From NCBI GenBank assembly GCA_051872765.1, contig JBJEED010000031.1, positions 1 through 53,021 of the forward strand: a stretch of 53,021 nt of DNA, read 5' to 3'. The position numbers and the translations under genes were made by a program. The notes beneath the pieces are model-generated. The model was not told the DNA's origin, did not search any database, and saw nothing but the letters and a program-made list of their open reading frames with translations. This DNA comes from Bacilli bacterium. Its GTDB lineage: Bacteria > Bacillota_I > Bacilli_A > RF39 > UBA660. Of the stretch, positions 5,879 to 47,989 are shown in pieces. Each line of letters starts with the position of its first letter. Within the stretch, counting starts at the first letter, position 1.

Positions 5879-7384
5879 GTGAGGTGGTTAATAGTGATTA
5901 AAGAAGAGAATAAAGAACTATTATTTAAAACTATTCTTGCATGTCTACTTTTATTAGCTGTTTTAATATTAGGAATATATTTTATTTTTTCTATTAAGAA
6001 TAAAAATAAAGATATAAATAAAATAAATCCCTCTTCAGAACCACAAATAAAAGAAGATTATAACTATGTTACACTGAATAACTATAAAGTATATGATAAT
6101 AAAGTATCTATAAATGAAAATAATGAAATAGTTTTATATAGTGATGATGAAAATATTTCTCATTATGTTATTGGTAAATATGGGTCAATATTTAGTTCAA
6201 TGTTTCCAGTATATATTATAAATGAAAGAGCTAAATATAAAGATTATGAAGTAATTCATAACGATGAGTATTACTATTATGTTGATACTAAAAACAATAT
6301 AATATCTGAACATTATGATAATATATTTCCAATTAAAAGGTATAATGAGTATACTCATTTAATATTAGAAAATGATAAACAGTTTTATATTCTAACTTTA
6401 GATAATGATGAAATAAAAGAATTAGATAGTAATATTACTAATATTACATATGTTAATGAATTTGATAATGATTATATTAATAATAATTATTTAATTGTTT
6501 CAAATCAAGAGAATAAATATGGATTAATAGATTATCATGGTAACATAATTATAAATTTTAAATATGATTATTTGAAAACTTATATTACTGAAAATAAATT
6601 TATAGCTAAAATTGATAATAAATATGGAATTATAAATGATAAACAAGAAATAATTGTTGATTTTGACAATGATAATATTATTTTTTATAAAGATTTAAAT
6701 AATTATTCTATCTTTATAAAGAATAAAAAAATTGGAATTTATTATGAAGATAAATTGATAATTAATTATAAATTAGACTATTCTTTTACTAATGATAATG
6801 CTTTAAAATACATTGTTAATAATGATACTTTATATTTAAATTTATTTTCTAATAATTACGATGAAATATATAATTACATAATTGATAAAAACGGAATACA
6901 AACTACAAGTAAAAAAGATTATGAACCACTATATAATCAAAATAATGAACTTAAATTTTTCTATACTATAGATGAAGTAAATAATGAAAGTAAAATTACA
7001 TATTATGATTTAGATTATAATAATTTATATACAATTGAAGTTCCATATAAAAATACTTATAATAATTTTGTAATGATAGAATTAATCAAAGATAATATTT
7101 CTTCAATTAAATATACATCAACAAATAATAATATTTATTATATAGATTTGTTTAACTCAAAACAAATAAAAGAAATAGATGCTTTACATGAATATTTTAA
7201 TAATGGATATTCATTTACTTTAAACGATAATAGAGAATTAAAAATATATAAAAATAAAGAATTAATAGGTACTTTTAATGATATTGATAAATATCTTGGA
7301 GATTATTATTTCTTAAGTATAAACTATAACGAAGATGAAGATATTTACAATAGTATTATTTATAATATAGAATTTAAAAAATAA
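5879..7384 (+). CDS. Membrane-anchored WG-repeat-like protein
   Basis: N-terminal TM helix; repeats KYGLIDYHGNIIINFKYD, KYGIINDKQEIIVDFDND, KIGIYYEDKLIINYKLD. Confidence 0.7.
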   Translation: MRWLIVIKEENKELLFKTILACLLLLAVLILGIYFIFSIKNKNKDINKINPSSEPQIKEDYNYVTLNNYKVYDNKVSINENNEIVLYSDDENISHYVIGKYGSIFSSMFPVYIINERAKYKDYEVIHNDEYYYYVDTKNNIISEHYDNIFPIKRYNEYTHLILENDKQFYILTLDNDEIKELDSNITNITYVNEFDNDYINNNYLIVSNQENKYGLIDYHGNIIINFKYDYLKTYITENKFIAKIDNKYGIINDKQEIIVDFDNDNIIFYKDLNNYSIFIKNKKIGIYYEDKLIINYKLDYSFTNDNALKYIVNNDTLYLNLFSNNYDEIYNYIIDKNGIQTTSKKDYEPLYNQNNELKFFYTIDEVNNESKITYYDLDYNNLYTIEVPYKNTYNNFVMIELIKDNISSIKYTSTNNNIYYIDLFNSKQIKEIDALHEYFNNGYSFTLNDNRELKIYKNKELIGTFNDIDKYLGDYYFLSINYNEDEDIYNSIIYNIEFKK

Positions 7385-7410
7385 AATTAGAGATGACCTC
7401 TAATTTTTTT
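7383..7410. terminator. Bidirectional intrinsic terminator
   Basis: AAAATTAGAG-ATGAC-CTCTAATTTT between convergent genes. Confidence 0.8.
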
Positions 7411-7987
7411 ATTCTATTTTAAATTTACTATAGTCTTTCTTTTCTTCTCTACTGGAATACTTGATATATAATTCATATAAGTATTTTTTATTTAATATAA
7501 TTTCTCCTTTATTTTTAAATTCTAAAAATACTTCTTCTAAGTAATCTAATAAATGTGGATTTAAATTATAATATTTTTTATTATCCATAAAGTATTCATA
7601 TACTTTACCATCATTATAATTTTTCTTATTATATGTTTTTGAAGCTGCGATTCGATCACATATCATCTCAAGCATATATTTAAATGGTATTATTGGCATT
7701 TTAACTGGAGCACAATAATCATACCAATATTCAAAATGATGTTTATTTCTACCAAAATGATGTAACCAAGCAGGACTATAACCTATATCTCTTTTACATG
7801 CTGCAAGGGGACTATATTTTCCATTTGATTTTTTATAATACTTAACTGATTCTTTTATTTCTTCGTAGGAAAATTTTGATAAATCATGCATTATTCCCCT
7901 AAATGGTATACCAACTTTAACACATAATTTAAATACTTCCCATTTATGTTTATTTACTGTAGCTAAATGTTTAAAAAAATATTTCAT
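7409..7987 (-). CDS. DUF5662-like HD-type metal-binding protein
   Basis: HKWEV, HDLSKF, AWLHHFGRNKHHFEYW, EMICDRIAAS. Confidence 0.75.
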   Translation of the reverse strand: MKYFFKHLATVNKHKWEVFKLCVKVGIPFRGIMHDLSKFSYEEIKESVKYYKKSNGKYSPLAACKRDIGYSPAWLHHFGRNKHHFEYWYDYCAPVKMPIIPFKYMLEMICDRIAASKTYNKKNYNDGKVYEYFMDNKKYYNLNPHLLDYLEEVFLEFKNKGEIILNKKYLYELYIKYSSREEKKDYSKFKIE

Positions 7988-8017
7988 AATTCCTCCACAT
8001 ACAAAATATCAATATTT

Positions 8018-11505: not shown

Positions 11506-12135
11506 TTATTCATTATCATCTGTATCTTCTAAATCACTTTCAATATACTCAAGAATATTTTTAGAATTATCTTTATTTTTAGGCTCAGGTATTTTATATA
11601 TAGTTTCACTTGTATCTACATCATTATCAGTAATGTATTTTTCAATAACTAAATCATTGTATTTTATTGAATTTAATATTGTTATTGCCCTAGATATAGC
11701 ATATCTAAGATTACTCTCTTCTACCTCTACCTCTATTATAGCATAATTATAACACAACTCAACAAAAAAATTCTCATTATTTTTAGTGATTCTTAAATAA
11801 CCTGACTTATCAGTATCACCAAATTCATAGTACTCATAATCGTCAAGCTCATGAATAGTAGTCATATTATTTTTATAATAATAACTAACAATATCTATAT
11901 TCAAATAGTATATATTATTATTTGATATCAACTTTTGAACATATTCATCATCTTCTTTTACACTAAATTCTTGTGGTAAATAATATTTATATCCTTTTCT
12001 ATTCACTGTAGTATTTGATGGTTCTATAGATATTTGTTTATTAACAATTTCTTCTAAAGTCATATTATTTATATTTGTACTTTCACATCCAAATAAGAAA
12101 AATACACAAATTATAATTAATATCTTCTTAATCAT
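11506..12135 (-). CDS. Putative lipoprotein
   Basis: MIKK-hydrophobic-LFGC lipobox. Confidence 0.7.
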   Translation of the reverse strand: MIKKILIIICVFFLFGCESTNINNMTLEEIVNKQISIEPSNTTVNRKGYKYYLPQEFSVKEDDEYVQKLISNNNIYYLNIDIVSYYYKNNMTTIHELDDYEYYEFGDTDKSGYLRITKNNENFFVELCYNYAIIEVEVEESNLRYAISRAITILNSIKYNDLVIEKYITDNDVDTSETIYKIPEPKNKDNSKNILEYIESDLEDTDDNE

Positions 12136-12168
12136 ATTAACTCCTACTTACAAAGTATAGCAAATTTT

Positions 12169-12786
12169 TTACTTTTTAACAACATCTATATAATTGATAT
12201 TTTTACCAATACTAATAAATTTATCCTCATACTCTGTAGTAATACTATCAAAATAATTAGTATTTGTTTCTTTTATTTCATAACCATTTTCTTTAAAACT
12301 CTCAAGAGAATAAGTATATAAATCATCATTATCTGTTTTCATCTGAATATGTTTTTCATTTTTAAATACATTTTCATATTTACTTAAAAATACTTTAGAT
12401 GTTAATCTTCTTTTAGCATGTCTTTTCTTTGGCCATGGATCAGAAAAATTTAAATATATTTTATCTATTTCATGATCAAATATCTCATCTATATTAATAG
12501 CATCAAAACAAATTAATTTTAGATTATTGATATCAAGTTGATCTAACTTCTTTACTGCACCAACTAAAGGACTATCATATTTTTCTATACCAATATAATT
12601 AATATTTTTATTTTCTAATGCTTTATTTATTATAAATTTTCCCTTTCCAGTACCAATTTCAATTTCTATTTTATTATCGTTATTAAATAATTTATTCCAT
12701 TTACCCTTATACTCAGTTGGATTATTTACAATATACTCTGATTCACTTATTATTATATTTGCATTTTTTATATGCTTAAGTCTCAT
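12169..12786 (-). CDS. trmB: tRNA (guanine-N7)-methyltransferase
   Basis: EIGTGKG, LNFSDPWPKKRHAKRRLT, KTDN, TEYE. Confidence 0.97.
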   Translation of the reverse strand: MRLKHIKNANIIISESEYIVNNPTEYKGKWNKLFNNDNKIEIEIGTGKGKFIINKALENKNINYIGIEKYDSPLVGAVKKLDQLDINNLKLICFDAINIDEIFDHEIDKIYLNFSDPWPKKRHAKRRLTSKVFLSKYENVFKNEKHIQMKTDNDDLYTYSLESFKENGYEIKETNTNYFDSITTEYEDKFISIGKNINYIDVVKK

Positions 12787-12849
12787 ACATAATCACTTCC
12801 AAAAATATATTATACACTAAGAAACGACTTTTGTCATATATTATTATAG

Positions 12850-13146
12850 GTGAATTTTATGAAAGAAAGAGATATGTTTTATCAAAATGTTAATCAAGGC
12901 TATATGGCTCCAGGTGCTGTTATTCCTCCAAGTGGATATAATGTAAATACACAATATCAAGCATATGGACCAAATTTAGCACCAGGTGTAATGCCAAATA
13001 ATACCTACAACCCAAATACTATAAGTGAAAATGATTATGAAGATAGAATAAGTAAATTAGAAAGACAAGTTAAAAACTTAGATACTAGACTTCAGAAACT
13101 AGAAAATATGAATACTACTATTGATGAAAATTTTTATATGATATAA
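12850..13146 (+). CDS. Small hypothetical protein (Pro/Gly/Tyr/Asn-rich, C-terminal coiled coil)
   Basis: SD AGGTGA then ATG at 12859 (likely start); RISKLERQVKNLDTRLQKLE heptads. Confidence 0.7.
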   Translation: MNFMKERDMFYQNVNQGYMAPGAVIPPSGYNVNTQYQAYGPNLAPGVMPNNTYNPNTISENDYEDRISKLERQVKNLDTRLQKLENMNTTIDENFYMI

Positions 13147-13218
13147 ATTTTTATATCTATTTTTCTATTTAATGATTTTAAAATGTATTTTATCGTAAAC
13201 TAATTATTTTTTCACAAT

Positions 13219-13253
13219 AAAACCTTGCTTCTTAAAACAAGAATCAAGGTTTT
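13219..13253. terminator. Bidirectional intrinsic terminator
   Basis: AAAACCTTG.TTCTT..AAGAA.CAAGGTTTT between convergent genes. Confidence 0.7.
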
Positions 13254-13274
13254 AATTTATTATAATATTTAGAT

Positions 13275-14324
13275 TTAATCTTTGCTACATTTAAATAAAA
13301 TTTTTCCTTCGACTTTTCCATTTTTATACATTTCAAAGGCTTTATAAGCATCTTTAAGATCAAAAATTTTATGAACCATTTCTGGATAATACTTTAATCT
13401 TCCATCAGCAAACATAGATTCAATTTCTTTCCACTCATTACCTGGAAAAGGATAAGAATATGACATCCATGAACCCGTTAATATAAATTCTTTTCTATTT
13501 AAATTTTCCCATAATTTAGGGGTGAATTCTAAATTAGATGTAGGAGTACCAATAAGGCATACCTTTCCTTTGTTACCTACTAATTCATAAGCATATTTCA
13601 TAGTATCTACTGAACCTGCTGTTTCAAATACATAATCAAATCCTCTACCATTTGTTAATTCTTTAGACTTTGTTATAAAATCTTCTTCTAGTGTAGAGAA
13701 AACATTTGTCGCTCCTAGTTTACTTGCAAGTTTTAATTTTTTAGGATTACGACCAAATGAAACAATTTTTGAAGCACCTAAGGCTTTAACAATTTGTGTA
13801 ACAAAAGCACCAACTGTACCTGCACCTAAAATAGCAACTGTCTTTCCTTTTTCAAAATTTAATAATTTAACAGCATGCATTGCTACTGTTGCTGGTTCAA
13901 ACATAGCTGCTTGTTCAAATGGAATACTATCATTTATTTTATACACATTTTCTTTTGGCAATACAACATACTCAGCATTACTTCCATTTCTCCTAGAACC
14001 AATAAAATCATAATGCTTACATAATGAATAATTTCCATTATTACAATCTTCACATTTCATACAAGGAATTAGTGGAATTCCTACAACATGATCTCCTACT
14101 TTAAAATTTTTAACATCACTAGCTACTTCATCTACAATTCCAGAAAATTCATGTCCTAAAATAAGTGGATAAAAATGTGCACCATTTTTTAACACTCTAG
14201 GAATATCTGAACCGCAAATACCACTCATGCACACTTTAATTTTAACATTACCCTTTTCTAACTTTGGAATTTCACATTCTTCATATCGTAAATCTTCATT
14301 TCCATATAAAACACTTGCTTTCAT
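13275..14324 (-). CDS. gatD: Zn-dependent polyol-phosphate dehydrogenase (galactitol-1-phosphate 5-dehydrogenase-like)
   Basis: GICGSDIPR, GHEFSG, CxxCxxC..C structural Zn site, GAGTVG; C-terminal RKE..LTGSWMSYS.PFPG.EW typical of GatD. Confidence 0.75.
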   Translation of the reverse strand: MKASVLYGNEDLRYEECEIPKLEKGNVKIKVCMSGICGSDIPRVLKNGAHFYPLILGHEFSGIVDEVASDVKNFKVGDHVVGIPLIPCMKCEDCNNGNYSLCKHYDFIGSRRNGSNAEYVVLPKENVYKINDSIPFEQAAMFEPATVAMHAVKLLNFEKGKTVAILGAGTVGAFVTQIVKALGASKIVSFGRNPKKLKLASKLGATNVFSTLEEDFITKSKELTNGRGFDYVFETAGSVDTMKYAYELVGNKGKVCLIGTPTSNLEFTPKLWENLNRKEFILTGSWMSYSYPFPGNEWKEIESMFADGRLKYYPEMVHKIFDLKDAYKAFEMYKNGKVEGKILFKCSKD

Positions 14325-14330
14325 AAATAC

Positions 14331-15659
14331 CTACCTTACAAAAATTCCACTTACAATATAGTTATGTTTAACCGCATAATTATAATCTTCTACCAAATTA
14401 ACAATATGATCTTTAACTAACTCTCTTGCCTTTAATTCTAGTTTTCCATCACGAACTTTAATATATTGATTTGGCATATATTGATGAAGCATATGTAATG
14501 GTATATTAACTTCATCAAAATTTGAAAATAACTTTTGCATAGCGCTTACTACCTTTGGATCCGTTAAATAATAACGACATCTATCAGAAAAACTATACTT
14601 ACGAGCTAATGCAATTTGTTTTTCAGAACCATGATAATGTTTTTTCCAATTTTTTGGATTTTCTAGCATTACTTCATCCAAAACTTCAATAAAATTAGAC
14701 CATTCTTCTTTCTTTACTAGTTCTTTTTCCATCATAGCAAGAGAAAATAATGCCTCACGAAGTGAAAAAGTTAATGCAGGTCCTACTTTAATAATAGCAA
14801 TTCCATCTTCGACCATTTCTCTTAATTTTTCTGGTGGTTGATAGTCTGTAGAATGTCCCTCAAATACAATATCCGGATATTTCTTTAAACAATCACATAA
14901 TTTTTTAGATTCTAAACGATTATATTGATGAATATCAGCATTTCCAAATTCAACACCAGGCTGAACAACAACAGCTATAATATAATTCCAAGCATCATCT
15001 AATCCTTTTTTTGAAAATTCTTTTTTATAAGCCTTTAATGTATTTTCAAAATCATCTGGATCTGTTACTTTTAGAGAGTCTTCCTCTTCTTGGCTACCAC
15101 CTGGTATTGGAACTTCACTACCAATTACAAAAACTGGATGAATAGCATTTGGATTTTTCTTTTTTAATTCTTTAAAAGCCTTTTCACATTCTTCATACAA
15201 TATCGCACCACGACGAGCAACTACACTTGGATCTAAAGGTTCATCTTTTGGATCACTACCTAATTTCATACTAGTATCCAAATGAATTTTCATATACCCA
15301 GACTCTACACATAAACGAACTAATTTTTTGGAATTTTCCATTGCTTCTTTTTCATCTAAATCTTGCCATGGTTGAGGTCCTAAATGATCTCCACCTAATA
15401 TAATTTTATCTTTATCAAAAGATATTTTTTCTGCTATTTCATATACATAATCTTTAAAGTCTTTTGGTGTCATACTCATATATCCACCAAATTGATTTAC
15501 TTGATTAGAAGTAGCTTCTATAAGTACATAATCATCAAATCTTTTTGATTGTTCCATAATTGCTTCAATAACAATTTTATTAGCACTACAAAAAGATGGA
15601 ATTCCACTATGTATACCCATTTTTCTTTTTTCAACCATATCAACTAAAATATTTTTCAT
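14331..15659 (-). CDS. gatZ: GatZ/KbaZ family protein (tagatose-6-phosphate 4-epimerase type)
   Basis: IEATSNQVNQFGGY, GGDHLGP, KIHLDTSM, VVQPGVEF, EGHSTDYQ, KVGPALTF, YSFSDRCRYY. Confidence 0.93.
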   Translation of the reverse strand: MKNILVDMVEKRKMGIHSGIPSFCSANKIVIEAIMEQSKRFDDYVLIEATSNQVNQFGGYMSMTPKDFKDYVYEIAEKISFDKDKIILGGDHLGPQPWQDLDEKEAMENSKKLVRLCVESGYMKIHLDTSMKLGSDPKDEPLDPSVVARRGAILYEECEKAFKELKKKNPNAIHPVFVIGSEVPIPGGSQEEEDSLKVTDPDDFENTLKAYKKEFSKKGLDDAWNYIIAVVVQPGVEFGNADIHQYNRLESKKLCDCLKKYPDIVFEGHSTDYQPPEKLREMVEDGIAIIKVGPALTFSLREALFSLAMMEKELVKKEEWSNFIEVLDEVMLENPKNWKKHYHGSEKQIALARKYSFSDRCRYYLTDPKVVSAMQKLFSNFDEVNIPLHMLHQYMPNQYIKVRDGKLELKARELVKDHIVNLVEDYNYAVKHNYIVSGIFVR

Positions 15660-16034
15660 ATATCATCCTCCTTAAAAAATAATACAAGATTTTATAATAA
15701 TAACTATATCTTTTAGATGAAAAAAATTAAAATATATACTCAAAATAAAATATTTTTAGTATAATCAATTATTTCATTTATTATATGTAGAATTTAATAA
15801 AAATTAAAATATTCTAAACTTAATTCTTATACGAATATCAAAAACGATATTATTTTTTAATTAACCACCTCTCTTAGCACACCTTGTGTAAATTATACTG
15901 TATCATATTGCTTTTAATTAAGTGATTTTCACTATATATAAGATTATATTTATTCCAATAGTACTAGTATTATTAACATAAGAATGATTATATCGCTATT
16001 TATAAATTAACAAATGTATTATTTTAATACATTT

Positions 16035-16766
16035 TTAATGTTTTTTTATTTTCTTTTGTTCATTAAAAAAATAATTACTAGCAAGATTTTCTAAAATTAG
16101 CATATCATCTGGATGTGTAATTTTTAAATTTAAAATATTTGATGGAATAATCGCCATTTCTATTCCATTTGCAAGTGCAATAGCACCTGCTGATGTCATT
16201 TTATTTAATTCTTCTAATGTGGAATTTTTATAAACATCATAAATAATTCCAAATTTAAATCCTTCTGGTGATGCTCCTGATACTACATTATCTCTATTTA
16301 TAACTTCTTTTAGCATACCATTTTCTGTGTAGTACACTGTATCATACTGCTTTCCTCCAAGGGTAGCTCCTCCATATTTTTCAATTGCCTCAATTACTTC
16401 ATTAGTTCCCTTTGTATCTACATATGGATGAGTTGCATCATGAATTAAAATTACATCTTCAAAGTCAGCAAATGTACTAATAACATCTAATGCATCTTTT
16501 ATATCTTTTGATCTTCCATTTCCACCCTTTAAAACATAAGAAACCTTATCACTATCAACTAATTTATTCCATTCTATTGTTTCATTATAATAATTTGGAT
16601 TTGTAACAATAACAATAGAATCTATTTCTTCCATTTGATTATATTTTTGTAAAATATAAAGATATAGTGGCATTCCATTAATACTATAAAATTGTTTTGG
16701 AAGTTGTTGACCAAACCTTTCCCCTTTTCCTCCCATCATTAACAACACTATTCTCTTATTTTTCAT
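16035..16766 (-). CDS. IspD/TarI family polyol-phosphate cytidylyltransferase
   Basis: GGKGERFG..LPKQF, LIHDATHP, SPEGF, NLKITHPDD. Confidence 0.88.
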   Translation of the reverse strand: MKNKRIVLLMMGGKGERFGQQLPKQFYSINGMPLYLYILQKYNQMEEIDSIVIVTNPNYYNETIEWNKLVDSDKVSYVLKGGNGRSKDIKDALDVISTFADFEDVILIHDATHPYVDTKGTNEVIEAIEKYGGATLGGKQYDTVYYTENGMLKEVINRDNVVSGASPEGFKFGIIYDVYKNSTLEELNKMTSAGAIALANGIEMAIIPSNILNLKITHPDDMLILENLASNYFFNEQKKIKKH

Positions 16767-16784
16767 TTTAACCTCTCTAAAAAA

Positions 16785-16813
16785 ATTATATCACACAGAT
16801 AACCTATTTTCAA
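16785..16813 (-). promoter_or_regulatory. sigmaA-type promoter for the TarI-like gene
   Basis: TTGAAA-17 nt-TATAAT with extended -10 TG. Confidence 0.65.
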
Positions 16814-16853
16814 TCATATCATCTGACTTATATTCTGCATTTTAATCTATTTA

Positions 16854-17969
16854 TTAAACTTTTTTAATGTTTTTCCTTTTTATTTTATCATAATGATTAT
16901 CTTTATTTTTATTTATAGTTTTTGATATTAATTGGCATATTTTATGGGATAAACTAGCTAATATAATTGACAGTATAATTACTATTAAATACATATATAA
17001 ATTACCTTTTTCATAAATTGGTAACATATGATATATTTGGTTTATAGTAATATGACTTAAATATAATTCTAAAGAAAATTCTCCAATTATTGATAATATA
17101 TTTAAAAAATATGATTTTCTTTTTTTAATTAATTTATCGATAAACGAAAATAAAATGGCTAACAAATAAGTTAAAGATACTCCCCCTATTAAATAAAAGA
17201 ACCTTAAATAATATCCATTAAGTAGTTTTTCATATTTAACATAGAAAAACAATAAAGTACCAATTATACTAATTAATTTCCAATATGATGGTATTTTAAC
17301 ATCTTCAAATACAAATTTACCCATAATACATCCTAGAATAAATACTGGAAATCTAGTTAGTGCGATTTCTATAGTATTATATAAAGATACATTAGTCTTA
17401 GCAAAAGAAATAATAAAAAGATATGTACATAGTAATAATAATAATCCACGAATTATAATCACTTTATTACTATTCTCTTTATTAAATAAAAATTGATAAA
17501 TATAAGGATATATAAAATATAAAATTAAAATACACGAAACAAACCATATTGCTTGATCACCAGTTTCCCAAAAATGAAAAAGAAACATCCTATTAATAAA
17601 TGAAAAAATTCCTTGCTTATTAATAAGCACATTAACTATAAACCAATATATTCCATTTATAATCCATACTGGCAATACTACTCTAAATATTCTCTTTTTA
17701 ATAAATTCATATGAATTTGGATTTTTATGATAAGAAAAGTACAAACAAATACCCGATAAAAACAAAAAAATATCTACACCTACATTTCCAGAAATCATAA
17801 ATAATCTTAATATCTTTAATGAATTACATCCAAATGAATAATTAATATTATTAATAGCTGTTCCATGAAAAAAAACAATCCATAATATTGCAAAACCATA
17901 AATAGGCTGTCTATATTTACTTACAATATTTAAATCTAATTTTTTATTTAGATGATTATTTTTTGACAT
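16854..17969 (-). CDS. Acyltransferase 3 (OafA/YrhL-like) membrane O-acyltransferase
   Basis: GFAILWIVFFH, GVDIFLFLSG, KKRIFR, SLELYLSH; multi-TM. Confidence 0.85.
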   Translation of the reverse strand: MSKNNHLNKKLDLNIVSKYRQPIYGFAILWIVFFHGTAINNINYSFGCNSLKILRLFMISGNVGVDIFLFLSGICLYFSYHKNPNSYEFIKKRIFRVVLPVWIINGIYWFIVNVLINKQGIFSFINRMFLFHFWETGDQAIWFVSCILILYFIYPYIYQFLFNKENSNKVIIIRGLLLLLCTYLFIISFAKTNVSLYNTIEIALTRFPVFILGCIMGKFVFEDVKIPSYWKLISIIGTLLFFYVKYEKLLNGYYLRFFYLIGGVSLTYLLAILFSFIDKLIKKRKSYFLNILSIIGEFSLELYLSHITINQIYHMLPIYEKGNLYMYLIVIILSIILASLSHKICQLISKTINKNKDNHYDKIKRKNIKKV

Positions 17970-18095
17970 ATTTCATTTCACCATCTCTTTTCTACATAAT
18001 AACATAACTATTCAAATCTTTGCAAATGTTTTTAATATAAAAAGAATTCATAATGAATCCTTTTACTTATAAATAATATTTTTATTTTTTATAAA

Positions 18096-19211
18096 TTATA
18101 ATAGTTCGTCTAATAAGTCCATTAACGCATTTAGACATCCACCTTTAGGAACATGAATATTTTTATCAACAAATTTTTGATATGCTTTATAATCAAAATC
18201 ATTATTTTCGATTGCATCAATTATTTTTTTAGGATCTTTAGTAAATAAAGTTGGAACTTCTTTTTCAATATCAAAATTTAACTCACGCTGAGTTTTATAT
18301 TCATCCCAATCATATGCATAAAGATAAATAGGTAATTTAAATAGCCCTACCTCATAAATAATACTTGAATAATCACAAATTACATAATCTGCAACCATCA
18401 AAGCTTCATATGTATTAGAAAAATTTTGAATAATTCTATTATCATCAACTTTTAATTTACTTAAAGGATGTGGCTTATATATTAAATTATATTTTTTAAA
18501 ATCAATATGGTCTACTAATTTTTGAATATGCTCTATACTATTTGTACTATTTTTTCTAAATGTTCCACAATATAAAATATTTTTCTTATGCTTTAATTTA
18601 GGATTATTTTTCAAAACTTCTTTTCTTTTATTATTAATATATTTTTTATCTAACCATAAATCTACCCTTGGAAGAGGTATTTCAAGTACTTGATTTTTAT
18701 TGCAATGAAAACCTTCTTCATAATCTTTTATAAAATTCATAGAAGAAATCAAAATATAGTCATAATTTTTATGCATTCTCATAATTTTAGCTAATTTAGA
18801 ATCGCTACCTTCTTTTTTATCTAACATAGCATAACCAAATTTTTTCATACTTCCAACTGCATGCCAAGCTTGAATAACTTTTAATTTACTTTTATGTTTT
18901 AAAACACTAATTACAATACAATAAGAATCTAGAATAACAACCTTAGATGTCGCAATATGATACATTTGTCTAAACATATGAAAAATGTATTTTATTTTAT
19001 TGTCCAAAGTTTTGGTTAACACGATAACTTCATAATTAGGATATCTCTTTTTTATCTCCTTAGATATCATATCAAAATCTATAGATGGTATATTTGATTG
19101 CCTACTAATAAGTGTTATTTTATTTTTAGTAGGAAATAACTTAATAACAAAATAAATTAACTTTAATACAAATATTGCAACTTTCAATAATAACAACTTT
19201 ATTTTACTCAT
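18096..19211 (-). CDS. CDP-glycerol/polyol glycerophosphotransferase family (TagB/TagF-like)
   Basis: QAWHAVGSMKKFG, LPRVD, TFR, KPHP, DYSSIIYE. Confidence 0.88.
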   Translation of the reverse strand: MSKIKLLLLKVAIFVLKLIYFVIKLFPTKNKITLISRQSNIPSIDFDMISKEIKKRYPNYEVIVLTKTLDNKIKYIFHMFRQMYHIATSKVVILDSYCIVISVLKHKSKLKVIQAWHAVGSMKKFGYAMLDKKEGSDSKLAKIMRMHKNYDYILISSMNFIKDYEEGFHCNKNQVLEIPLPRVDLWLDKKYINNKRKEVLKNNPKLKHKKNILYCGTFRKNSTNSIEHIQKLVDHIDFKKYNLIYKPHPLSKLKVDDNRIIQNFSNTYEALMVADYVICDYSSIIYEVGLFKLPIYLYAYDWDEYKTQRELNFDIEKEVPTLFTKDPKKIIDAIENNDFDYKAYQKFVDKNIHVPKGGCLNALMDLLDELL

Positions 19212-19219
19212 AATATCTC

Positions 19220-20842
19220 CTAATCTCTTTGATTTAAAATAATATAATCAATGATTTGATCACTAGCAATTTTTTTATTTGTTAAACATTTATCTACTAA
19301 GAAATCAGATTTTTCTTTTTCACCATAATCTTTATTTTCTAGTGCTTCCATGATTTGATCAAAAGTGGTACATACTTTGCCAGGGGCTACCTTATCGATT
19401 GGTCTATGAACACCTCTTGTAGCAGAATAAATATCTTTATCGTATACATAAAATAAGACGGGTCTTTCTAGTAGTAAATAATCATAAAAACAAGAAGAAT
19501 AATCAGTAATTAAAATATCAGTAATATAAAGTAAATCATTAAGTTTGTATTTTGACATATCATAGATTAAATCAGAGTATTCTTTCTTTATTGGTATATC
19601 TTGTAAAATAAAATGATGTTTTCCAAATGCAACTATATAATCATTCTTTTTACAAAAATTATATAAAGCATCAAAATCTATTTTACTATAATCATAATAT
19701 GCTTCTTTTTGGCTATTTCCTCTATAAGTAGGAGCAAAAGTTATAATCTTTTTATTTTTAAATTGAGGATATTCATCATAAAAAGATTTAGTAACCTTTT
19801 TTATATATTCTTTATCTAAAAAATGTTCTAATCTTGGCATACCAGTTGCCAATAATGCCTCTTTTTCTATTCCCCAAACTTCTGAATATATTTCTTTTAA
19901 ATGATCATTACCAATAATTCCATATGTATATTGACGATGGCAAGATTCATAAGGTCTTGGAGACCCTGCTATTCCAAATCTTCCATATCCAACTAACTTA
20001 AATCCAAATCCAGCATGCCATAATTGTGTTAAAGTAGTCTTTTTATTTAAATTAATAAAAGAAAATACAGGCACATAATCATCAACAAAAATATAGTCTT
20101 GATATGATATTTGAGTCAATAATTTTATCCAATAAAATACTCTTATTTTTCCATCAAAAATATTAACAAAATTCTTTCTAATTTTATATTTCTTATCTAA
20201 ATTTCTTTCATATATTCTATCATACACTGCTGTCATATTGTCCCTAATATGATCCATATTTTGAGATAAAAATAAAATTCTTTTTCCATTTTTAGGAATA
20301 ATATGAGTCAAGATTTGATAATAAAGATTCAAACATCTTTTGCCTAAAATTACAATTAATGTTTTTAATTTATGGGACAATCCCAAAGCCAATCTAATGG
20401 ATGAAACCAAATGTTTTTTTTCAGGATGCTTATTATCAATCATATAACTTGTATATAAATATAATTGATGAGGCTCTTCTTCAGTAATATGAAAAGTAAC
20501 TATATATGATTCTAACCATCCTCCATATCTAAAAACCCTAGATAAATCTTCAATGTTTAAAAGAATTTCATCAGAAACACATAACTTTTCATCTGAAGAA
20601 ATCATATATCCACCAGATTTTAATATTTCTCTTCCTTCTGCTATTGTTATATTTATCTTAGAACGATAATAATTTTTATCTAATTTTTTTGTTTCTAATA
20701 ATATTTTATTTTCTGATAATTTTATCTCACCTTTTTTATTTTTCTTAAATAAATTTAAACAAAGATTAATATCTTTTGTACTTTCATATTCTATAAACAA
20801 ATATGTTCTTTTCCAAAATATTCTTTTTATTATTGGCTGCAT
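19220..20842 (-). CDS. CDP-polyol phosphotransferase / teichoic-acid polymerase (TagF/TarL-like)
   Basis: QLWHAGFGFK, GMPR, FAPTYRG, LITDYSS. Confidence 0.88.
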   Translation of the reverse strand: MQPIIKRIFWKRTYLFIEYESTKDINLCLNLFKKNKKGEIKLSENKILLETKKLDKNYYRSKINITIAEGREILKSGGYMISSDEKLCVSDEILLNIEDLSRVFRYGGWLESYIVTFHITEEEPHQLYLYTSYMIDNKHPEKKHLVSSIRLALGLSHKLKTLIVILGKRCLNLYYQILTHIIPKNGKRILFLSQNMDHIRDNMTAVYDRIYERNLDKKYKIRKNFVNIFDGKIRVFYWIKLLTQISYQDYIFVDDYVPVFSFINLNKKTTLTQLWHAGFGFKLVGYGRFGIAGSPRPYESCHRQYTYGIIGNDHLKEIYSEVWGIEKEALLATGMPRLEHFLDKEYIKKVTKSFYDEYPQFKNKKIITFAPTYRGNSQKEAYYDYSKIDFDALYNFCKKNDYIVAFGKHHFILQDIPIKKEYSDLIYDMSKYKLNDLLYITDILITDYSSCFYDYLLLERPVLFYVYDKDIYSATRGVHRPIDKVAPGKVCTTFDQIMEALENKDYGEKEKSDFLVDKCLTNKKIASDQIIDYIILNQRD

Positions 20843-21172
20843 AAATTCCTCCTTGAATATTCATTTCTTTTAGCCATTACATTATATCAAAAACCACTAA
20901 ATTGAACAAGTTGTATTGTAAACTAAAACTTTATCAATATTTTAAATAATATAAAATAAGAATTCATTACTAATATATGATAATAATATAATTATTTTCT
21001 TATATAATATTAAAACTATTTAGCATATAAGTAAAATACCATAATAATTTAAATTAATTATTTTTTTATTTTATTTAATATTTATACACTATTAATAATT
21101 GTCTGTAAATCTTTACACTATAATTTTACAATAATTATTATGTATTATATAATTATTATAAGGAGTGTATAT

Positions 21173-21364
21173 ATGAAAACATTAAAATATGGTGATAAAA
21201 TATTAGTTATTGAAGATGATAGTTCAGAAGGTAAAACAGGAATAGCAATTCACAATATTGATAATATAGAAGATACTAAAGTTATTGATACAAATAAAAT
21301 AAAAGATGCATTAGAAGATACTATTACTGACTTAGAATTAAATTTGGAGGAAAAAAATGAATGA
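21173..21364 (+). CDS. Small acidic hypothetical protein
   Basis: SD AGGAG then ATG 21173; TTTACA-17-TATAAT at 21125-21153; overlaps the next ORF. Confidence 0.6.
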   Translation: MKTLKYGDKILVIEDDSSEGKTGIAIHNIDNIEDTKVIDTNKIKDALEDTITDLELNLEEKNE

Positions 21365-22784
21365 GTTACCTAATACATCTATTTATTTAGATTCACCAAG
21401 AATAAATCAAATTAATGATTTTTTAAACATGATGCTTTCTGTTGCCAAAGAAAATAATACAACTTTAACAGCAGATGATGTATATTATTTATTATGTAGG
21501 TTTAATATAAAGAATAATGATCATAATAAACGTCATATGATTGAAAATTTATTTTATAGTTGGATTGATAAATTTAAAGGTAGAAATAATATTAATGTTT
21601 TTAGAGCAGATAACTGGAGATATTTTTGTCAATTTACTAATAAAGCTCATTTAGTTCAAGGAAAAGATATCAAAATGTATATTCCTATTGATTATGATCA
21701 TTTGGATAAAGGAGTTAGCGAATTATTTAATTTTATGTCTTCCTTAAATATGACACATGCATCTAAAGTAGGCCTTGATTTAAGAAATGATAATGTTGTT
21801 GTAAGATTACCAATAAATGATGTGGAAAATGCATATAAAATTATAGAATTTTGTAATAATAACAAATATATCAAATCCGGATTAAATCAAACTAATCCAT
21901 TTGTTCCAAATTATAACAACATAGGATTAATGTATGAAGAAGGATTCTCATATAACTATGAAATGGCTAAAGGAATAGCAACATTTATTAATAGAAATAA
22001 ACATAGAAATAGAGTTACTATTGATGACTTTAATAGAGAATTTGATTATTTATTTAGTAATAATGAATATTATGATAGTATTAAAGCTGCCTATAATGAA
22101 GCAACTGGATTAAGTAAAGGTCAATTTCAAAAAAATGGAAAAGCAGTTTCTATGAATACTAAAGAGTTAAATTATTCTCAGAAAAAAGAAATATTTTTAA
22201 AAACTGTTTCTGCCACATATAATAAATATGGTCCTGAACAAGTTAAATTTGCGATTTTAAGAGCAATAAAAAATAATGATTATGGATATTTTACTTCTGC
22301 TAATCAAAATTTGAGAAATAAACTTAAAAATAATGTTAACAGTCAAGAAATGCATAATATTATTTTTGACATAGTTACAAATAAATTTGGTATAGTAAAT
22401 GGAATCAGTTTAGATGATTTAATAAATAGATTTATATCATTAAGTTTTGAAAATGCTTTAGTAAATAATTTGAATAACATATGCATAGCTACACTTCAAA
22501 AATATGGAGTAGAACAATTAAGAACTGCTTTATATTCTTTTTATCATTTTGGTATTACAAATAGATTTACTAGAAGATCAAATAATCCTAATGATTTAAC
22601 TAATTACCGTGATATGTTAAGTTCATATAATAAGGTTACTTTCATTGATACTATTAAAAATTATCTTAGTTTTTCTGGAATCAATATTGAAAATATGAAA
22701 GAAGATGAACTTATGAACTACTATGCTGATTATTTATATTCTAATATGAGACTTAAAATGGGTGATAATATGTCAAGAAATTAA
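21357..22784 (+). CDS. Hypothetical protein with two C-terminal T.xKYGxxQ repeats
   Basis: 475-aa ORF with SD GGAGG; repeats TYNKYGPEQVKFAI..YFT and TLQKYGVEQLRTAL..RFT. Confidence 0.75.
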   Translation: MNELPNTSIYLDSPRINQINDFLNMMLSVAKENNTTLTADDVYYLLCRFNIKNNDHNKRHMIENLFYSWIDKFKGRNNINVFRADNWRYFCQFTNKAHLVQGKDIKMYIPIDYDHLDKGVSELFNFMSSLNMTHASKVGLDLRNDNVVVRLPINDVENAYKIIEFCNNNKYIKSGLNQTNPFVPNYNNIGLMYEEGFSYNYEMAKGIATFINRNKHRNRVTIDDFNREFDYLFSNNEYYDSIKAAYNEATGLSKGQFQKNGKAVSMNTKELNYSQKKEIFLKTVSATYNKYGPEQVKFAILRAIKNNDYGYFTSANQNLRNKLKNNVNSQEMHNIIFDIVTNKFGIVNGISLDDLINRFISLSFENALVNNLNNICIATLQKYGVEQLRTALYSFYHFGITNRFTRRSNNPNDLTNYRDMLSSYNKVTFIDTIKNYLSFSGINIENMKEDELMNYYADYLYSNMRLKMGDNMSRN

Positions 22785-22838
22785 TATACTTTCTTGACTT
22801 TTTTACTTACGATAACACAAAAAAGAATTAAATCAAAA

Positions 22839-22863
22839 AGACATTAGTTTTTTACTAATGTCT
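22839..22863. terminator. Intrinsic terminator hairpin between convergent genes
   Basis: AGACATTAGT-TTTTT-ACTAATGTCT flanked by A and T tracts. Confidence 0.7.
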
Positions 22864-22951
22864 ACTTTTTTATTGTGAACTATTTAGGGTTCAGTTCACT
22901 TAGATTGTCCACATTTTTTGTTATTGCTTCAAAAAAGTACTTTTTAACTAT

Positions 22952-25900
22952 TTATTTTCTTTTCATAAACTTATTAAGTATTAATCCAAATGCAATTAAT
23001 ATTACCATAGATATTGCATAAAAATAATAATTTATTTTAGGTGACTTTTCTACATTTTCTACTTGTTCATCAATAATTTCTTTTTCTTTTTTAATAATGT
23101 TTATTATGTATACTACTTCTTTACCATCTTGACCTTTAATCTTTAATTCAGATTTAGTATTTTTTATATCTAAATTATCAATAGTCCTTGGTCCATATTC
23201 AGAAACAAATTCATTATTTTTATCACTAAGTACTGCATCAACTACTACTTTATCTACATTATTTTCTATCTCATAATCATAATAATAATTATCATTTTGT
23301 AAAGATATCTTTTCACCATTGATACTTAATTCAGATAAATTATTATCACTTGGTCTATTAACTATTAATTTATATACTCTACTACTTCCACTCTCAGCAA
23401 TAACATCAATATTAATTTCATTTGCTCCATAATTAATTGCTATATCACCTGTACCAGCAATATTTTTAACTCTTTTACTATTAGAAACAGCTTGTATATT
23501 TATATTATCTAATTTAGTAGTAATGCTAAAACTACTATTAGAACCAACGATAATTTCTTTATTATTTATTTTTATACTTTTTAGTGTATTGTCAGTATCA
23601 TATCTTGTAATGCTTAATGTATATATTTTCTTTTCTCCATTATTTGTCACTACTACATTAAAGGTATTCTTTCCAAATTCAAGTTTCTTTTCCCCTGTTC
23701 CATCTACTTTTGATGTAGTTGATACTGCTACTGCACTAATAGTAGTCTTATCTGAATTAACAACTAAATCATAAGTTAATTTTTCAGAATTAAAGTTAAT
23801 CTTTGCTCCTTTTACAGTTAAACTTTTTAACGATGGATTATTATTACTTTCGTTTTTAAGAAATAAAACATATTCATCTACTGAAGCGGAATATTTAATT
23901 GATATTATATATCCATTATTAACTTTTTCTTCTCTGCCTATCTTATTTTTATTATTATCATATAATGTGATAGTACCATTAGTAGTTATTTTATCTGCTA
24001 TACTACCAATAGTAGTTCCAGGTTTAATATCATTAATAATATTATTATATCTATCTACTAATAGTGAACTATCAAATGATATTTCTTTTTCTTCTTTCCA
24101 TATTGCTTTAACACTAGCGCTTTCATTTCCCATTGTAAATATATTATTGTTTACGCTACTTCCTTTTCCACTAACTTCCCATTTTACAAATGTATATCCA
24201 TCTCTTGTAATAGTAGGTAGTGTATATGTATATTCTCTTAATACATCTATAGTAGTACTTCCTGAATAATTTCCACCATTTGGATTTATTGTTAATTTAT
24301 ATTTTACTTCTTTAAATTTTCCATATATTTTATGGTTCGAATGCACTCTAACATTTGTTACTTTTGTTTTATAATCTGGATCTAAATACCAACCGTCAAA
24401 ATCATATCCTTTTTTATAAGGTGTTTGTATTTTTTCTGAATATTTATCATTATATTTTACAACTGTTCCTTTTGCAGGATATCCATCAACATAAGCAGAA
24501 ATACCATATTCTGCATCGTTATATACTTGAGTTGGTCTTAATACTGCAAATAAATTTGATGAAAATAATAAATGCTTTATAACTCTAAAACTACAATAAT
24601 AACTACCACCTGTATTTAAAAGATAATTACCTTCTCCATCAAATTTCTTTGATTCTTTACTGCATGTATCAAGACCATTTTTATTAAAACTAATTAATGT
24701 TGGATATCCATCTTTATCAAATGAAGTTACTAGATAATATTCAAGCTCGCTTGGATTAACTGTTGTTAAACTATAGTTTTGAGCTGTTCCTTCTCTTGAA
24801 TGATCAAAATTATCAATAAATTTATTAGATACAACAATTATATCTCCTATTTCTAAATATCTATTATGAATATATTTAATTCTTTTTTTATTTTCATTCC
24901 CAATTAATTTTTTACCACCATACATTCCATCCACTAGCATATTACTAATTGTATTTGTTTTTTCTTCATCTTTTTTAAAAAACGCACTAAGATTATATGC
25001 AGCACTTGTTCCAGACAAATATTGTGAATAATAACCATTCCAAGAATAAAATAATGAATTTATTATATTTTCACCAGTTAATTCACTTAAATCTATATGA
25101 AAATTGTTATAATAAATATATTTAATAAAATCTAAAGACGAAAAACTAGTTGCAGTATTAATGCTATCTTTACTCGTAATTTGATCCTTATCATTATGCT
25201 TATAATTTTTATTCTTAAATGTATTTATAGTATTCATCAAATTATTAACATCATTAGGATTAATTGTTCTGTTTACATTTAAACTAATTGTATTTAATTT
25301 TAAACTAATTGTATTTAATGAAGAAGATTTGTCATTATCTTTATATGATACTTCGAATTTACCTGCTTCTAATTTACTTGATACCGAACTATCTACAATT
25401 ACATTAAATGTTGGATATCTATCTGTTCCTTCACATGTAATTTCATTACTACTACTAGTTTTACATGTATATTTGCTTGGATATTTAATTATTCTTGTTC
25501 CTTCAGGTGCTGTAAATTTTACTATGAACTTTTTATTTTTAACATTATCATATGCATTTCCAGATGATATCCATTGTCTTTCTTTACTATCATCAGACAC
25601 ACAACCACTTTTATTTTTTGAACTATCAGAACAATAACCATATCCTCTTTTGTCTTCTAAACTTAATCCATAAGTAATAGTATCTCCTACATCTACAGAA
25701 TTATAAATTGATATTCCTCTTCCATCCTTTTTAACATATTGTTCTACTCTAGTTCCTGAAAAAGCAACTCTTGCTTTATCATTTTGAGTAATATTGTTAT
25801 TTGTACAAGTATTAGTATTGCCACAATATACATTAAGCGGTCTTATAATTGTTAAGTTTATTATTCTATTAGTATCACCTTCATTTTTATGTTTATTTTT

Positions 25901-26980
25901 TCTACTATTAAGATAATTTACTATACTACTTTCATATCTAATACTAAAAGAATCATATGAACCATCTACTCCCGTAGCATGAATAATACCCGAATCATTT
26001 GAATTTAAAACATCTTCAACATAAAACATAGCATGACCGGCTGATTTATATTGTATTTTTATTATATCTCCTTTTTGTAATAAATATTTTTCATTACCTT
26101 TAGTAAAATACTCTATAATAGAATTCCATTCATCTAAATATTTATTATAATTATTAGCATCTTTATAAGTTAAATTTTCAAAATTATAATTAAATACTAT
26201 TTCAGATTTATTATCTTTATCAATATATATTCCATCTTTACCTTTTTTAGAATTAATAATATCATATGCTTTTAATTCAGGACCGTCTAAAGCACTAGTA
26301 AACAGGCACTTAGTTCTATCTCCGTTATTTTGTGCTATGCAATTAGAAACTCTCGTTAGTATTCCAGTAGTAGCCCAAGCTCTACCATACTTAGTAATTG
26401 CATCATTAAATGTATCTAGACTACTTATTGCTCTAATTTTATCAGGTTTATAAATAATTTCACCATTTTCAGTAGTTTTAGTAATTTTAGTAGTATTTGC
26501 AGTACCATATAATGAATAAAACTCTGACATATTATATCCTAATACATTACTATATATCAAATAAGTAAATGCAGAGCAAGCAATATTATACATATTAGAA
26601 CGACTAACATCTTCAGGAGAAATATTTAAATTATCATAAAAAGTAGTTGACACTAGAGGATAAAATGATTTCTTAGAAACACAATTTGTGTTCTTTTCAT
26701 AATCTAATACGCAAGAATTATTATTACTAATATCAGGATATTTTACATCAGCATCTAATAAATATTGTTCATAATCTGAATAATAATTATTATAGTAATA
26801 ACTAAGAGCTGCCGAGATAAGCATTTTTTGTAAATCTTGTCTACTATATGTATTTGTTTCTGTTGCAACACTTCTATTAGAAATTAAACTAAAATAAAAT
26901 AATAATATTATAATTATCAATATAATAATTATTATAAAAAAGTATCTAAATTTTGTTATAAAATCTTTAATTTTTTTCAT
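22952..26980 (-). CDS. Large surface protein: papain/NlpC-like N-terminal region, InlB B-type repeats, cadherin-like beta-sandwich repeats, C-terminal TM anchor
   Basis: N- and C-terminal TM helices; KKGYDFDGWY and RDGYTFVKW repeats; three LKSL.V/I..Y.L.I.R modules; CSAFTY..GDII..GHAM. Confidence 0.7.
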   Translation of the reverse strand: MKKIKDFITKFRYFFIIIIILIIIILLFYFSLISNRSVATETNTYSRQDLQKMLISAALSYYYNNYYSDYEQYLLDADVKYPDISNNNSCVLDYEKNTNCVSKKSFYPLVSTTFYDNLNISPEDVSRSNMYNIACSAFTYLIYSNVLGYNMSEFYSLYGTANTTKITKTTENGEIIYKPDKIRAISSLDTFNDAITKYGRAWATTGILTRVSNCIAQNNGDRTKCLFTSALDGPELKAYDIINSKKGKDGIYIDKDNKSEIVFNYNFENLTYKDANNYNKYLDEWNSIIEYFTKGNEKYLLQKGDIIKIQYKSAGHAMFYVEDVLNSNDSGIIHATGVDGSYDSFSIRYESSIVNYLNSRKNKHKNEGDTNRIINLTIIRPLNVYCGNTNTCTNNNITQNDKARVAFSGTRVEQYVKKDGRGISIYNSVDVGDTITYGLSLEDKRGYGYCSDSSKNKSGCVSDDSKERQWISSGNAYDNVKNKKFIVKFTAPEGTRIIKYPSKYTCKTSSSNEITCEGTDRYPTFNVIVDSSVSSKLEAGKFEVSYKDNDKSSSLNTISLKLNTISLNVNRTINPNDVNNLMNTINTFKNKNYKHNDKDQITSKDSINTATSFSSLDFIKYIYYNNFHIDLSELTGENIINSLFYSWNGYYSQYLSGTSAAYNLSAFFKKDEEKTNTISNMLVDGMYGGKKLIGNENKKRIKYIHNRYLEIGDIIVVSNKFIDNFDHSREGTAQNYSLTTVNPSELEYYLVTSFDKDGYPTLISFNKNGLDTCSKESKKFDGEGNYLLNTGGSYYCSFRVIKHLLFSSNLFAVLRPTQVYNDAEYGISAYVDGYPAKGTVVKYNDKYSEKIQTPYKKGYDFDGWYLDPDYKTKVTNVRVHSNHKIYGKFKEVKYKLTINPNGGNYSGSTTIDVLREYTYTLPTITRDGYTFVKWEVSGKGSSVNNNIFTMGNESASVKAIWKEEKEISFDSSLLVDRYNNIINDIKPGTTIGSIADKITTNGTITLYDNNKNKIGREEKVNNGYIISIKYSASVDEYVLFLKNESNNNPSLKSLTVKGAKINFNSEKLTYDLVVNSDKTTISAVAVSTTSKVDGTGEKKLEFGKNTFNVVVTNNGEKKIYTLSITRYDTDNTLKSIKINNKEIIVGSNSSFSITTKLDNINIQAVSNSKRVKNIAGTGDIAINYGANEINIDVIAESGSSRVYKLIVNRPSDNNLSELSINGEKISLQNDNYYYDYEIENNVDKVVVDAVLSDKNNEFVSEYGPRTIDNLDIKNTKSELKIKGQDGKEVVYIINIIKKEKEIIDEQVENVEKSPKINYYFYAISMVILIAFGLILNKFMKRK

Positions 26981-47988: not shown

Positions 47989-47989
47989 A

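Follow-up and report, generated by a model that had tools for sequence, protein, structure and literature searches.

A stretch of 53,021 nucleotides from a Bacilli bacterium (contig JBJEED010000031.1; hereafter the window, numbered along its forward strand) carries a cluster of six genes at positions 13275-20842. Relatives of the galactitol-catabolic proteins GatZ and GatD are encoded there next to a TarI/IspD-family cytidylyltransferase, two TagF-family transferases and a membrane O-acyltransferase. The question raised by this locus is why enzymes known from sugar catabolism stand among genes for the synthesis of a surface polymer. A preliminary description of this DNA had proposed that galactitol enzymes were repurposed to make a cytidine diphosphate (CDP)-linked hexitol for a wall or surface polymer, and the comparative evidence presented here, namely conserved synteny, loci free of catabolic genes and separate clades, supports that proposal.

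We lean towards the view that the TarI-like, GatZ-like and GatD-like genes form a biosynthetic cassette leading from fructose-6-phosphate to a CDP-hexitol and on to an O-acylated phosphodiester surface polymer. Its core is the firmer part: the cassette probably yields a CDP-linked, tagatose-derived hexitol destined for a surface polymer. The chances that this hexitol is galactitol appear about evenly balanced, and the assignment of the product as a poly(hexitol phosphate) wall teichoic acid is tentative, falling somewhat below that.

Linkage of the cassette to surface-polymer genes in other genomes

Twenty close relatives of the GatZ-like protein were aligned and used to scan bacteria and archaea at one genome per species. 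At least 591 GatZ relatives were found; the best 80 loci, designated L001 and so on, were taken with up to 10 kb of flank on each side, and the counts below refer to these 80. Their open reading frames (ORFs) were searched with the window proteins (phmmer), and 153 flanking ORFs of the loci with a TarI-like gene were annotated with Pfam.

In 18 of the best 80 loci, GatZ is accompanied by a neighbouring TarI-like gene. It is directly upstream of GatZ in 15 of the 18 and directly downstream in L032, and in L005 and L025 a LicD gene stands between the two. Genes for LicD-type transferases are present in 10 of these 18 TarI-linked loci (L002, L003, L005, L008, L016, L019, L025, L029, L032 and L072) and TagF-family (Glyphos_transf) genes in eight (L001, L006, L012, L019, L031 and L032 by Pfam; L009 and L017 by phmmer), so that one or the other is found in 16 of 18. 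The preliminary description had named, as a test that could refute it, a lack of synteny between gatZ/gatD and tarI/tagF in relatives; these counts show that the synteny is maintained. Other genes in the TarI-linked loci include those for Wzz, Bac_transf, Wzx-type flippases, ABC-2 exporters, GT1/GT2 glycosyltransferases, YfhO and pyruvyl transferases, and Pfam annotation of their flanking ORFs revealed no phosphotransferase system (PTS), aldolase or sugar kinase.

As a control, 31 TarI-less loci were taken and the two ORFs closest to GatZ on either side were annotated with Pfam, which covers 112 of the 225 such ORFs belonging to 62 loci. The neighbours there include FGGY kinases (9 of the 31 loci), class II aldolases (8), NagA-like amidohydrolases (8), SIS/AgaS-like proteins (7), PfkB kinases (2) and PTS components (2), along with sugar ABC transporters and regulators of the DeoR, GntR, AraC and LacI types. 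IspD, LicD and Glyphos_transf were each found in none of the 112 control ORFs, and TagF-like phmmer matches in none of the 62 TarI-less loci. The class II aldolase GatY/KbaY (PF01116), which 8 of the 31 TarI-less loci possess, was found neither in the 18 TarI-linked loci nor in the 53-kb window. Within this set, the cassette is tied exclusively to surface-glycopolymer genes. It is this linkage in other genomes that raises the cluster above chance, and not co-orientation: the six genes do all point the same way, as had been described, but this carries no weight, since nearly every real gene of the window is on the minus strand, as these six are.

The closest of the best 80 loci, L001 (labelled 'uncultured Bacilli bacterium'), reproduces the six-gene cluster in unchanged order, with a GatZ protein 89% identical to that of the window. 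L001 also carries a third TagF-family gene (5383-7992, 869 aa) that the window does not have, flanked by the genes for the short TagF-like protein and the acyltransferase.

Trees of the two proteins of catabolic type follow the same division. In the tree of 80 GatZ proteins (L069 was omitted as too short), the TarI-linked label requires 2 changes versus 17.2 in shuffles, and 0 of 500 shuffles were that low. The TarI-linked proteins fall into two clades, one of 16 rows including the window (SH-aLRT branch support 96) and one of three rows, L025, L031 and L032 (SH-aLRT 99), and both stand apart from GatZ proteins that adjoin aldolase, kinase or NagA genes. For 35 GatD-like proteins (L024, L044, L049 and L056 were omitted as fragments or weak matches), the label requires 3 changes versus 11.8 in shuffles (0 of 500), and the TarI-linked proteins lie on longer branches. 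It should be noted that the shuffles show clustering only, which kinship alone can yield; the informative part is that genomic context coincides with clade.

The 16-row clade bears the labels Bacilli, Oscillospiraceae, Lachnospiraceae, Acutalibacteraceae, Erysipelotrichaceae, Bacteroidaceae and Methanobrevibacter, and this mixture implies horizontal spread. On L038, a 5.5-kb contig labelled Prevotella, the GatZ protein falls within a clade of Lachnospiraceae, where a very short branch places it beside L036; this suggests either that the contig was mis-binned or that the gene was transferred very recently, and calls for caution with the taxon labels of short contigs from metagenome-assembled genomes (MAGs), including L072. 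Two Bacteroidales GatZ proteins that are sister to the TarI-linked clade, in L026 (1664-6829) and L055 (7015-11814), each adjoin a GDPD glycerophosphodiester phosphodiesterase, in L026 together with a 510-aa Fe-alcohol dehydrogenase and a metallophosphoesterase; speculatively, these could be scavenging loci for hexitol-phosphate polymers.

Predicted enzymes and the hexitol they would activate

We infer the chemistry of every step from the protein families. The GatZ-like enzyme would epimerise fructose-6-phosphate at C4 to D-tagatose-6-phosphate, and the GatD-like Zn dehydrogenase would reduce the keto group at C2 to give a hexitol phosphate, most likely galactitol-1-phosphate, which is the same compound as D-galactitol-6-phosphate. 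The TarI-like enzyme would then combine the hexitol phosphate with cytidine triphosphate (CTP) to form CDP-galactitol. From this donor, the two TagF-family enzymes would transfer hexitol phosphate to a lipid- or wall-linked acceptor through phosphodiester bonds, and the Acyl_transf_3 membrane protein would O-acylate the polymer.

The GatZ-like protein matches PF08013 over residues 5-430, corresponding to profile positions 1-419 of 420, and aligns with E. coli GatZ (PDB 2FIQ) at 361.9 bits. According to PMC11907403, E. coli GatZ and KbaZ convert fructose-6-phosphate to tagatose-6-phosphate, and Glu44, Asp87, His88, Glu171, His257 and Lys279 belong to the modelled active site of GatZ. In the 2FIQ alignment these residues correspond to E48, D91, H92, E182, H269 and K291 of the window protein, and none of the 80 alignment rows departs from these six residues. 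The conversion of fructose-6-phosphate to tagatose-6-phosphate by this protein is therefore plausible. Source databases name its relatives 'non-catalytic aldolase subunit'. The addition of a GatZ-type epimerase implies that the ketose entering the next steps would be tagatose-6-phosphate.

For the GatD-like protein the best PDB match is E. coli GatD (4A2C, 261.1 bits over residues 12-322), and the runner-up scores 165.3. All 35 aligned GatD-like rows share C37, H58, E59 and E143 and the quartet C88/C91/C94/C102, which by analogy with medium-chain dehydrogenases/reductases (MDR) in general would be the metal ligands of the catalytic and structural sites. G109-S110-R111 is likewise kept in all 35, bar one Ser at position 111, while position 112 (R in the window, where the stretch reads GSRR) is variable. 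A GatD-like MDR is present in 15 of the 18 TarI-linked loci. In the other three, L008 (10294-11364), L029 (11298-12350) and L072 (2883-3926), the GatD-like gene is absent and a short-chain dehydrogenase/reductase (SDR, PF01370) lies beside GatZ; the window has the MDR, and no SDR paired with the cytidylyltransferase was found there. The near-full-length PDB match of the L029 SDR is 8V4G/8V4H (119.7 bits); human UDP-glucuronate decarboxylase attains an equal score over a shorter stretch. PMC10918830 describes 8V4G/8V4H as the reductase of C. jejuni HS:5 that converts CDP-6-D-fructose to CDP-6-D-glucitol. The pairing of a cytidylyltransferase and a GatZ with reductases of two families that are unrelated to each other fits a pathway to a CDP-linked, tagatose-derived hexitol, and does not resemble a chance pair of catabolic genes.

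The L029 locus, on a 170-kb Methanobrevibacter contig, also contains a gene for a PEP-mutase/cytidylyltransferase-like fusion (13299-14612) that adjoins LicD and the cassette, which suggests phosphonate decoration of the same polymer.

The cytidylyltransferase matches PF01128 over residues 7-226, has the TarI chains 4JIS and 6XHP among its top PDB matches and aligns without gaps to its L001 counterpart at 72% identity; judged by sequence, it is intact. Its relatives are named 'IspD' or 'IspD/TarI family' in the source databases. The two top-120 lists of relatives, one for the cytidylyltransferase and one for GatZ, have 14 exact longest-contig sizes in common, a soft hint which suggests that the two genes co-occur on many metagenomic contigs too.

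Of the two TagF-family proteins, the 540-aa one matches PF04464 over residues 178-534 and has TarL as its best NCBIfam model (271.2 bits, cut-off 1000), aligned at model positions 125-543 of 562. The 371-aa protein scores 134.8 with TarL and 121.6 with TarB, both under the cut-off, so neither protein reaches equivalog status for TarL, TarB or TarF in NCBIfam. Their L001 orthologues score 819 and 584 bits, respectively, by phmmer. The Acyl_transf_3 protein has seven hydrophobic segments, and genes of this family occur in 8 of the 18 TarI-linked loci (L001, L002, L003, L004, L008, L016, L017 and L032), often straight after GatD.

Several observations weigh against the proposed route. Each cassette protein falls short of the relevant NCBIfam cut-offs, whether equivalog or subfamily: the GatZ-like protein reaches 513.2 bits with TIGR02810 (cut-off 568.8), 488.9 with KbaZ (707) and 454.5 with GatZ (579); the GatD-like protein reaches 322.9 bits with its best model, galactitol-1-phosphate 5-dehydrogenase (NF007642, cut-off 550); and the cytidylyltransferase reaches 122.9 bits with IspD (TIGR00453, 181.3) and 118.5 with ribitol-5-phosphate cytidylyltransferase (NF001183, 166). 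The three are relatives, not orthologues, of GatD, GatZ/KbaZ, TarI and IspD. No TagO, TagA, TagGH-type exporter or LCP ligase was found in the window with Pfam and NCBIfam, so the remainder of a wall-teichoic-acid pathway is unseen; the sole GT4 protein of the window is MraY, and both ABC proteins found there belong to the ABC_membrane type. In L001, L020 and L032, components of the ABC-2 exporter type (ABC2_membrane and/or ABC_tran) are encoded near the cassette. In two of the 18 TarI-linked loci, L004 and L020, no phosphotransferase was found in the fetched flank. All 18 are metagenome-derived records, mostly MAGs, in which a short contig such as L072 (4.7 kb) may carry an incorrect taxon label, and the survey covers the best 80 of at least 591 GatZ relatives. 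Galactitol phosphate linked to a teichoic acid or polysaccharide was not found in the open-access literature, and we know of no report of a galactitol-phosphate polymer. Finally, reduction of tagatose-6-phosphate at C2 can give the phosphate of galactitol or of D-altritol, and the sequence does not tell which.

It follows from general carbohydrate chemistry that D-tagatose is the 2-keto sugar of galactitol and D-altritol alike, and CDP-D-altritol (altritol being the same as D-talitol), or another hexitol, could take the place of CDP-galactitol with the logic of the cassette unchanged. The GatD-like score well under its model cut-off, the long branches of the TarI-linked GatD-like proteins, the variable position 112 and the unrelated SDR of three loci, whose stereochemistry is not predictable, are all in keeping with the other C2 epimer; nevertheless, the nearest characterised enzyme is the E. 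coli galactitol-1-phosphate 5-dehydrogenase (261 vs 165 bits) and the metal ligands and G109-S110-R111 are conserved, and we consider the exchange of hexitol unlikely. The order of the two middle steps could also be reversed, tagatose-6-phosphate being cytidylylated to CDP-6-tagatose before the GatD-like enzyme reduces it. In both characterised CDP-hexitol routes, as presented in PMC10918830, it is the ketose phosphate that is cytidylylated first. Three loci combine TarI-like and GatZ-like proteins with an SDR of the CDP-fructose-reductase type, and the TarI-like proteins of these SDR loci are as near to that of the window as those of the MDR loci (203-234 vs 212-260 bits). The TarI tree is star-like, does not separate SDR from MDR loci (support 29/53) and is uninformative about the order. 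GatD and its relatives, however, use free hexitol phosphates, and the TarJ/TarI pair of S. aureus and S. pneumoniae provides a precedent for reduction by an MDR followed by cytidylylation; with both sides considered, the reversed order is possible but the less probable one. Reduction before cytidylylation, with galactitol-1-phosphate as the intermediate, is retained as the working scheme.

The fate of the activated hexitol is a further point, since the hexitol phosphate might be incorporated a single time in each repeat unit, or be attached to another glycan as a pendant substituent, giving a phosphodiester capsule or secondary wall polysaccharide. The LicD-type transferases that accompany the cassette in 10 of 18 loci, the Wzx, Wzz, Bac_transf and glycosyltransferase genes typical of repeat-unit polysaccharides (e.g., L012, L002, L005 and L029) and the distance of the window TagF-like proteins from the TarL cut-off are consistent with such a role. 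The number of TagF-family genes, two in the window and three in L001, and the alignment of the 540-aa protein along most of TarL argue instead for a backbone, as does the resemblance of the two-TagF arrangement to the primase and polymerase of ribitol teichoic-acid loci. The two TagF-family genes of the window suggest a teichoic-acid-like chain, and we are doubtful of a non-backbone role in the window; the LicD and Wzx/Wzz contexts elsewhere imply that the same donor may serve repeat-unit polysaccharides too. It might finally be argued that the genes are coincidental neighbours, a catabolic GatZ/GatD pair next to a TarI-like enzyme for CDP-ribitol (or an IspD), with an ordinary ribitol or glycerol teichoic acid as the product. 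Taken singly, the best family label of each protein is indeed catabolic or generic, and the databases call the relatives of the cytidylyltransferase IspD or IspD/TarI. This explanation is highly improbable in view of an adjacency kept in 18 loci with labels of three phyla, of the PTS, kinase, aldolase and transporter genes that are common around TarI-less GatZ and were not found in those 18, and of the separate clades of TarI-linked GatZ proteins. Moreover, neither TarJ nor another ribitol-5-phosphate source was found in the cluster with Pfam, in agreement with the preliminary description, and an SDR of the nucleotide-sugar type replaces GatD in three loci.

Combining the route with its distribution gives a broader picture, which we offer as possible but just short of evenly balanced. 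A mobile cassette of GatZ-type 4-epimerase, reductase and TarI-type cytidylyltransferase, found under Bacillota, Bacteroidota and Methanobrevibacter labels, may make an undescribed CDP-galactitol or CDP-D-altritol from fructose-6-phosphate and feed TagF- and LicD-type transferases; the products would be a new class of hexitol-phosphate glycopolymers, and the Bacteroidales loci with GDPD and Fe-alcohol dehydrogenase genes would be the matching scavengers.

Layout and surroundings of the locus

The ORF listing and profile searches (Pfam and NCBIfam) bear out the earlier description of the six genes, which are listed in Table 1. A Pfam scan of 41 ORFs of the window revealed no PTS component, class II aldolase (PF01116), PfkB or FGGY kinase or DeoR-type regulator, in line with the earlier remark that the cluster lacks a PTS, aldolase, kinase and regulator.

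Table 1. Features of the six-gene cluster (window coordinates; roles are proposals)
Feature	Position	Strand	Family match and proposed role
GatD-like Zn-dependent MDR dehydrogenase, 349 aa	13275-14324	-	ADH_N + ADH_zinc_N (Pfam); proposed tagatose-6-phosphate reductase
GatZ/KbaZ-family protein, 442 aa	14331-15659	-	PF08013, 582.4 bits; proposed fructose-6-phosphate/tagatose-6-phosphate 4-epimerase
AT-rich spacer, 375 bp, at the cytidylyltransferase/GatZ-like boundary	15660-16034	no strand	lineage-specific; no function assigned
TarI/IspD-family cytidylyltransferase, 243 aa	16035-16766	-	PF01128, 104.3 bits; proposed CTP:hexitol-phosphate (or tagatose-6-phosphate) cytidylyltransferase
Membrane O-acyltransferase Acyl_transf_3, 371 aa	16854-17969	-	PF01757, 95 bits
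Short TagF-family phosphotransferase (TagB/TarF/TarL-like), 371 aa	18096-19211	-	PF04464 Glyphos_transf, 170.7 bits; proposed primase or second transferase
TagF/TarL-like CDP-alditol phosphotransferase, 540 aa	19220-20842	-	PF04464 Glyphos_transf, 209.5 bits; proposed polymerase or elongating transferase

Separate promoters and the 375-bp gap had been cited as a caveat to treating the cluster as one tight operon. The first of these carries no weight: promoter-like matches occur at the chance level (83 vs 81.5 ± 8.4 in shuffles), and since the promoter/terminator scan also found no terminator-like site, we do not use it for or against an operon. The gap is real, but it does not mark a functional boundary, because in L001 the TarI stop overlaps the GatZ start; the spacer is thus a local peculiarity and not a border between two functional units. 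A regulatory RNA or element in the spacer was considered and rejected, with no Rfam match at E ≤ 1 in the interval 12000-23000 and a folding z of −0.15 relative to shuffles. The only ORFs that overlap the spacer are 23-28 aa long, and we interpret the spacer as an insertion or as drift at this locus.

The MraY gene (TIGR00445, 297.3 bits) and FtsW/SpoVE-like genes at 1804-3918 indicate that the organism makes peptidoglycan. On the other side of the cluster, the divergent plus-strand gene orf475 (21357-22784) was considered as a cluster member and rejected, as neither Pfam nor NCBIfam assigns its product to a family and none of the 80 loci contains a homologue; the protein is soluble, 475 aa long and Asn/Lys-rich, with 0 hydrophobic segments. 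Just upstream of the cluster, a minus-strand gene at 22952-26980 encodes a protein of 1342 aa with Listeria-Bacteroides repeats and InlB B-repeat-like and cadherin-like domains, probably a surface protein.

Further along the window, a 622-aa protein with a prepilin-type methylation motif at its N-terminus is encoded at 28533-30401, and the competence genes ComEC and ComEA adjoin a gene for a YhcG-type PDDEXK nuclease at 38738-41513. Five sigma-70-family paralogues of 371-426 aa lie in tandem, head to tail, on the minus strand at 46780-52853, which is unusual for one locus; region 2 is present in every one, and regions 3 and/or 4 in most.

Significance and relation to known pathways

The activated alditols known to us are CDP-glycerol, CDP-ribitol, CDP-arabinitol, CDP-mannitol and CDP-6-glucitol, and the proposed route, if true, adds one more to this short list. 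The proposed pathway belongs with the known CDP-alditol routes to phosphodiester glycopolymers, and its novelty would lie in the alditol itself and in the recruitment of an epimerase and a dehydrogenase from catabolism. In accordance with the preliminary description, the route appears to be undescribed: neither CDP-galactitol nor a further CDP-hexitol or CDP-tagatose nucleotide was found in open-access papers and preprints, subscription journals lying outside this search. A biosynthetic role would also follow for a family regarded as a 'non-catalytic aldolase chaperone', and the annotation of many metagenome genes labelled IspD, GatZ or sorbitol/threonine dehydrogenase would be corrected. Surface glycopolymers govern the encounters of gut microbes with phages, antibodies, lectins and one another, their building blocks are known in few cultured species, and the cassette recurs in many gut microbes; a polymer of a meso-alditol phosphate would be a distinctive chemical marker and antigen.

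Three known systems bear on the proposal. Catabolic GatZ-GatD-GatY (KbaZ/KbaY) for galactitol and N-acetylgalactosamine contributes proteins of the same families as the GatZ-like and GatD-like proteins, but the window lacks the PTS, GatY/KbaY aldolase, kinase and regulator, and the proposed flux would be reversed, reductive and biosynthetic. In the synthesis of ribitol wall teichoic acid in S. aureus and S. pneumoniae, TarI and TarJ make CDP-ribitol and TarL/TarK polymerise it. The order of operations proposed for the window is the same, in that an MDR would reduce a ketose phosphate, a TarI-family enzyme would cytidylylate the alditol phosphate and a TagF-family enzyme would transfer it; the differences lie in a hexose instead of a pentose substrate, a GatD-like protein in place of TarJ, an extra epimerase and scores below the TarI and TarL cut-offs.

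The third comparison is with the two CDP-hexitol routes that start from fructose-6-phosphate. As described in PMC10918830, CDP-6-D-glucitol in C. jejuni HS:5 is made by the cytidylyltransferase HS5.18 and the reductase HS5.17, and CDP-D-mannitol in S. pneumoniae 35A by Mnp1/Mnp2. The window would share with them the origin of a CDP-hexitol in fructose-6-phosphate, its proposed use in a phosphodiester-linked surface polysaccharide, and the combination of a PF01128 cytidylyltransferase with an NAD(P)H reductase. Those routes, in contrast, are presented there as consisting of two enzymes, with no epimerase and with a PF01370 SDR acting on CDP-6-fructose, whereas the window has a GatZ-family enzyme and an MDR reductase of the GatD-like type. 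L008, L029 and L072 combine GatZ with the SDR type of the C. jejuni and S. pneumoniae 35A routes.

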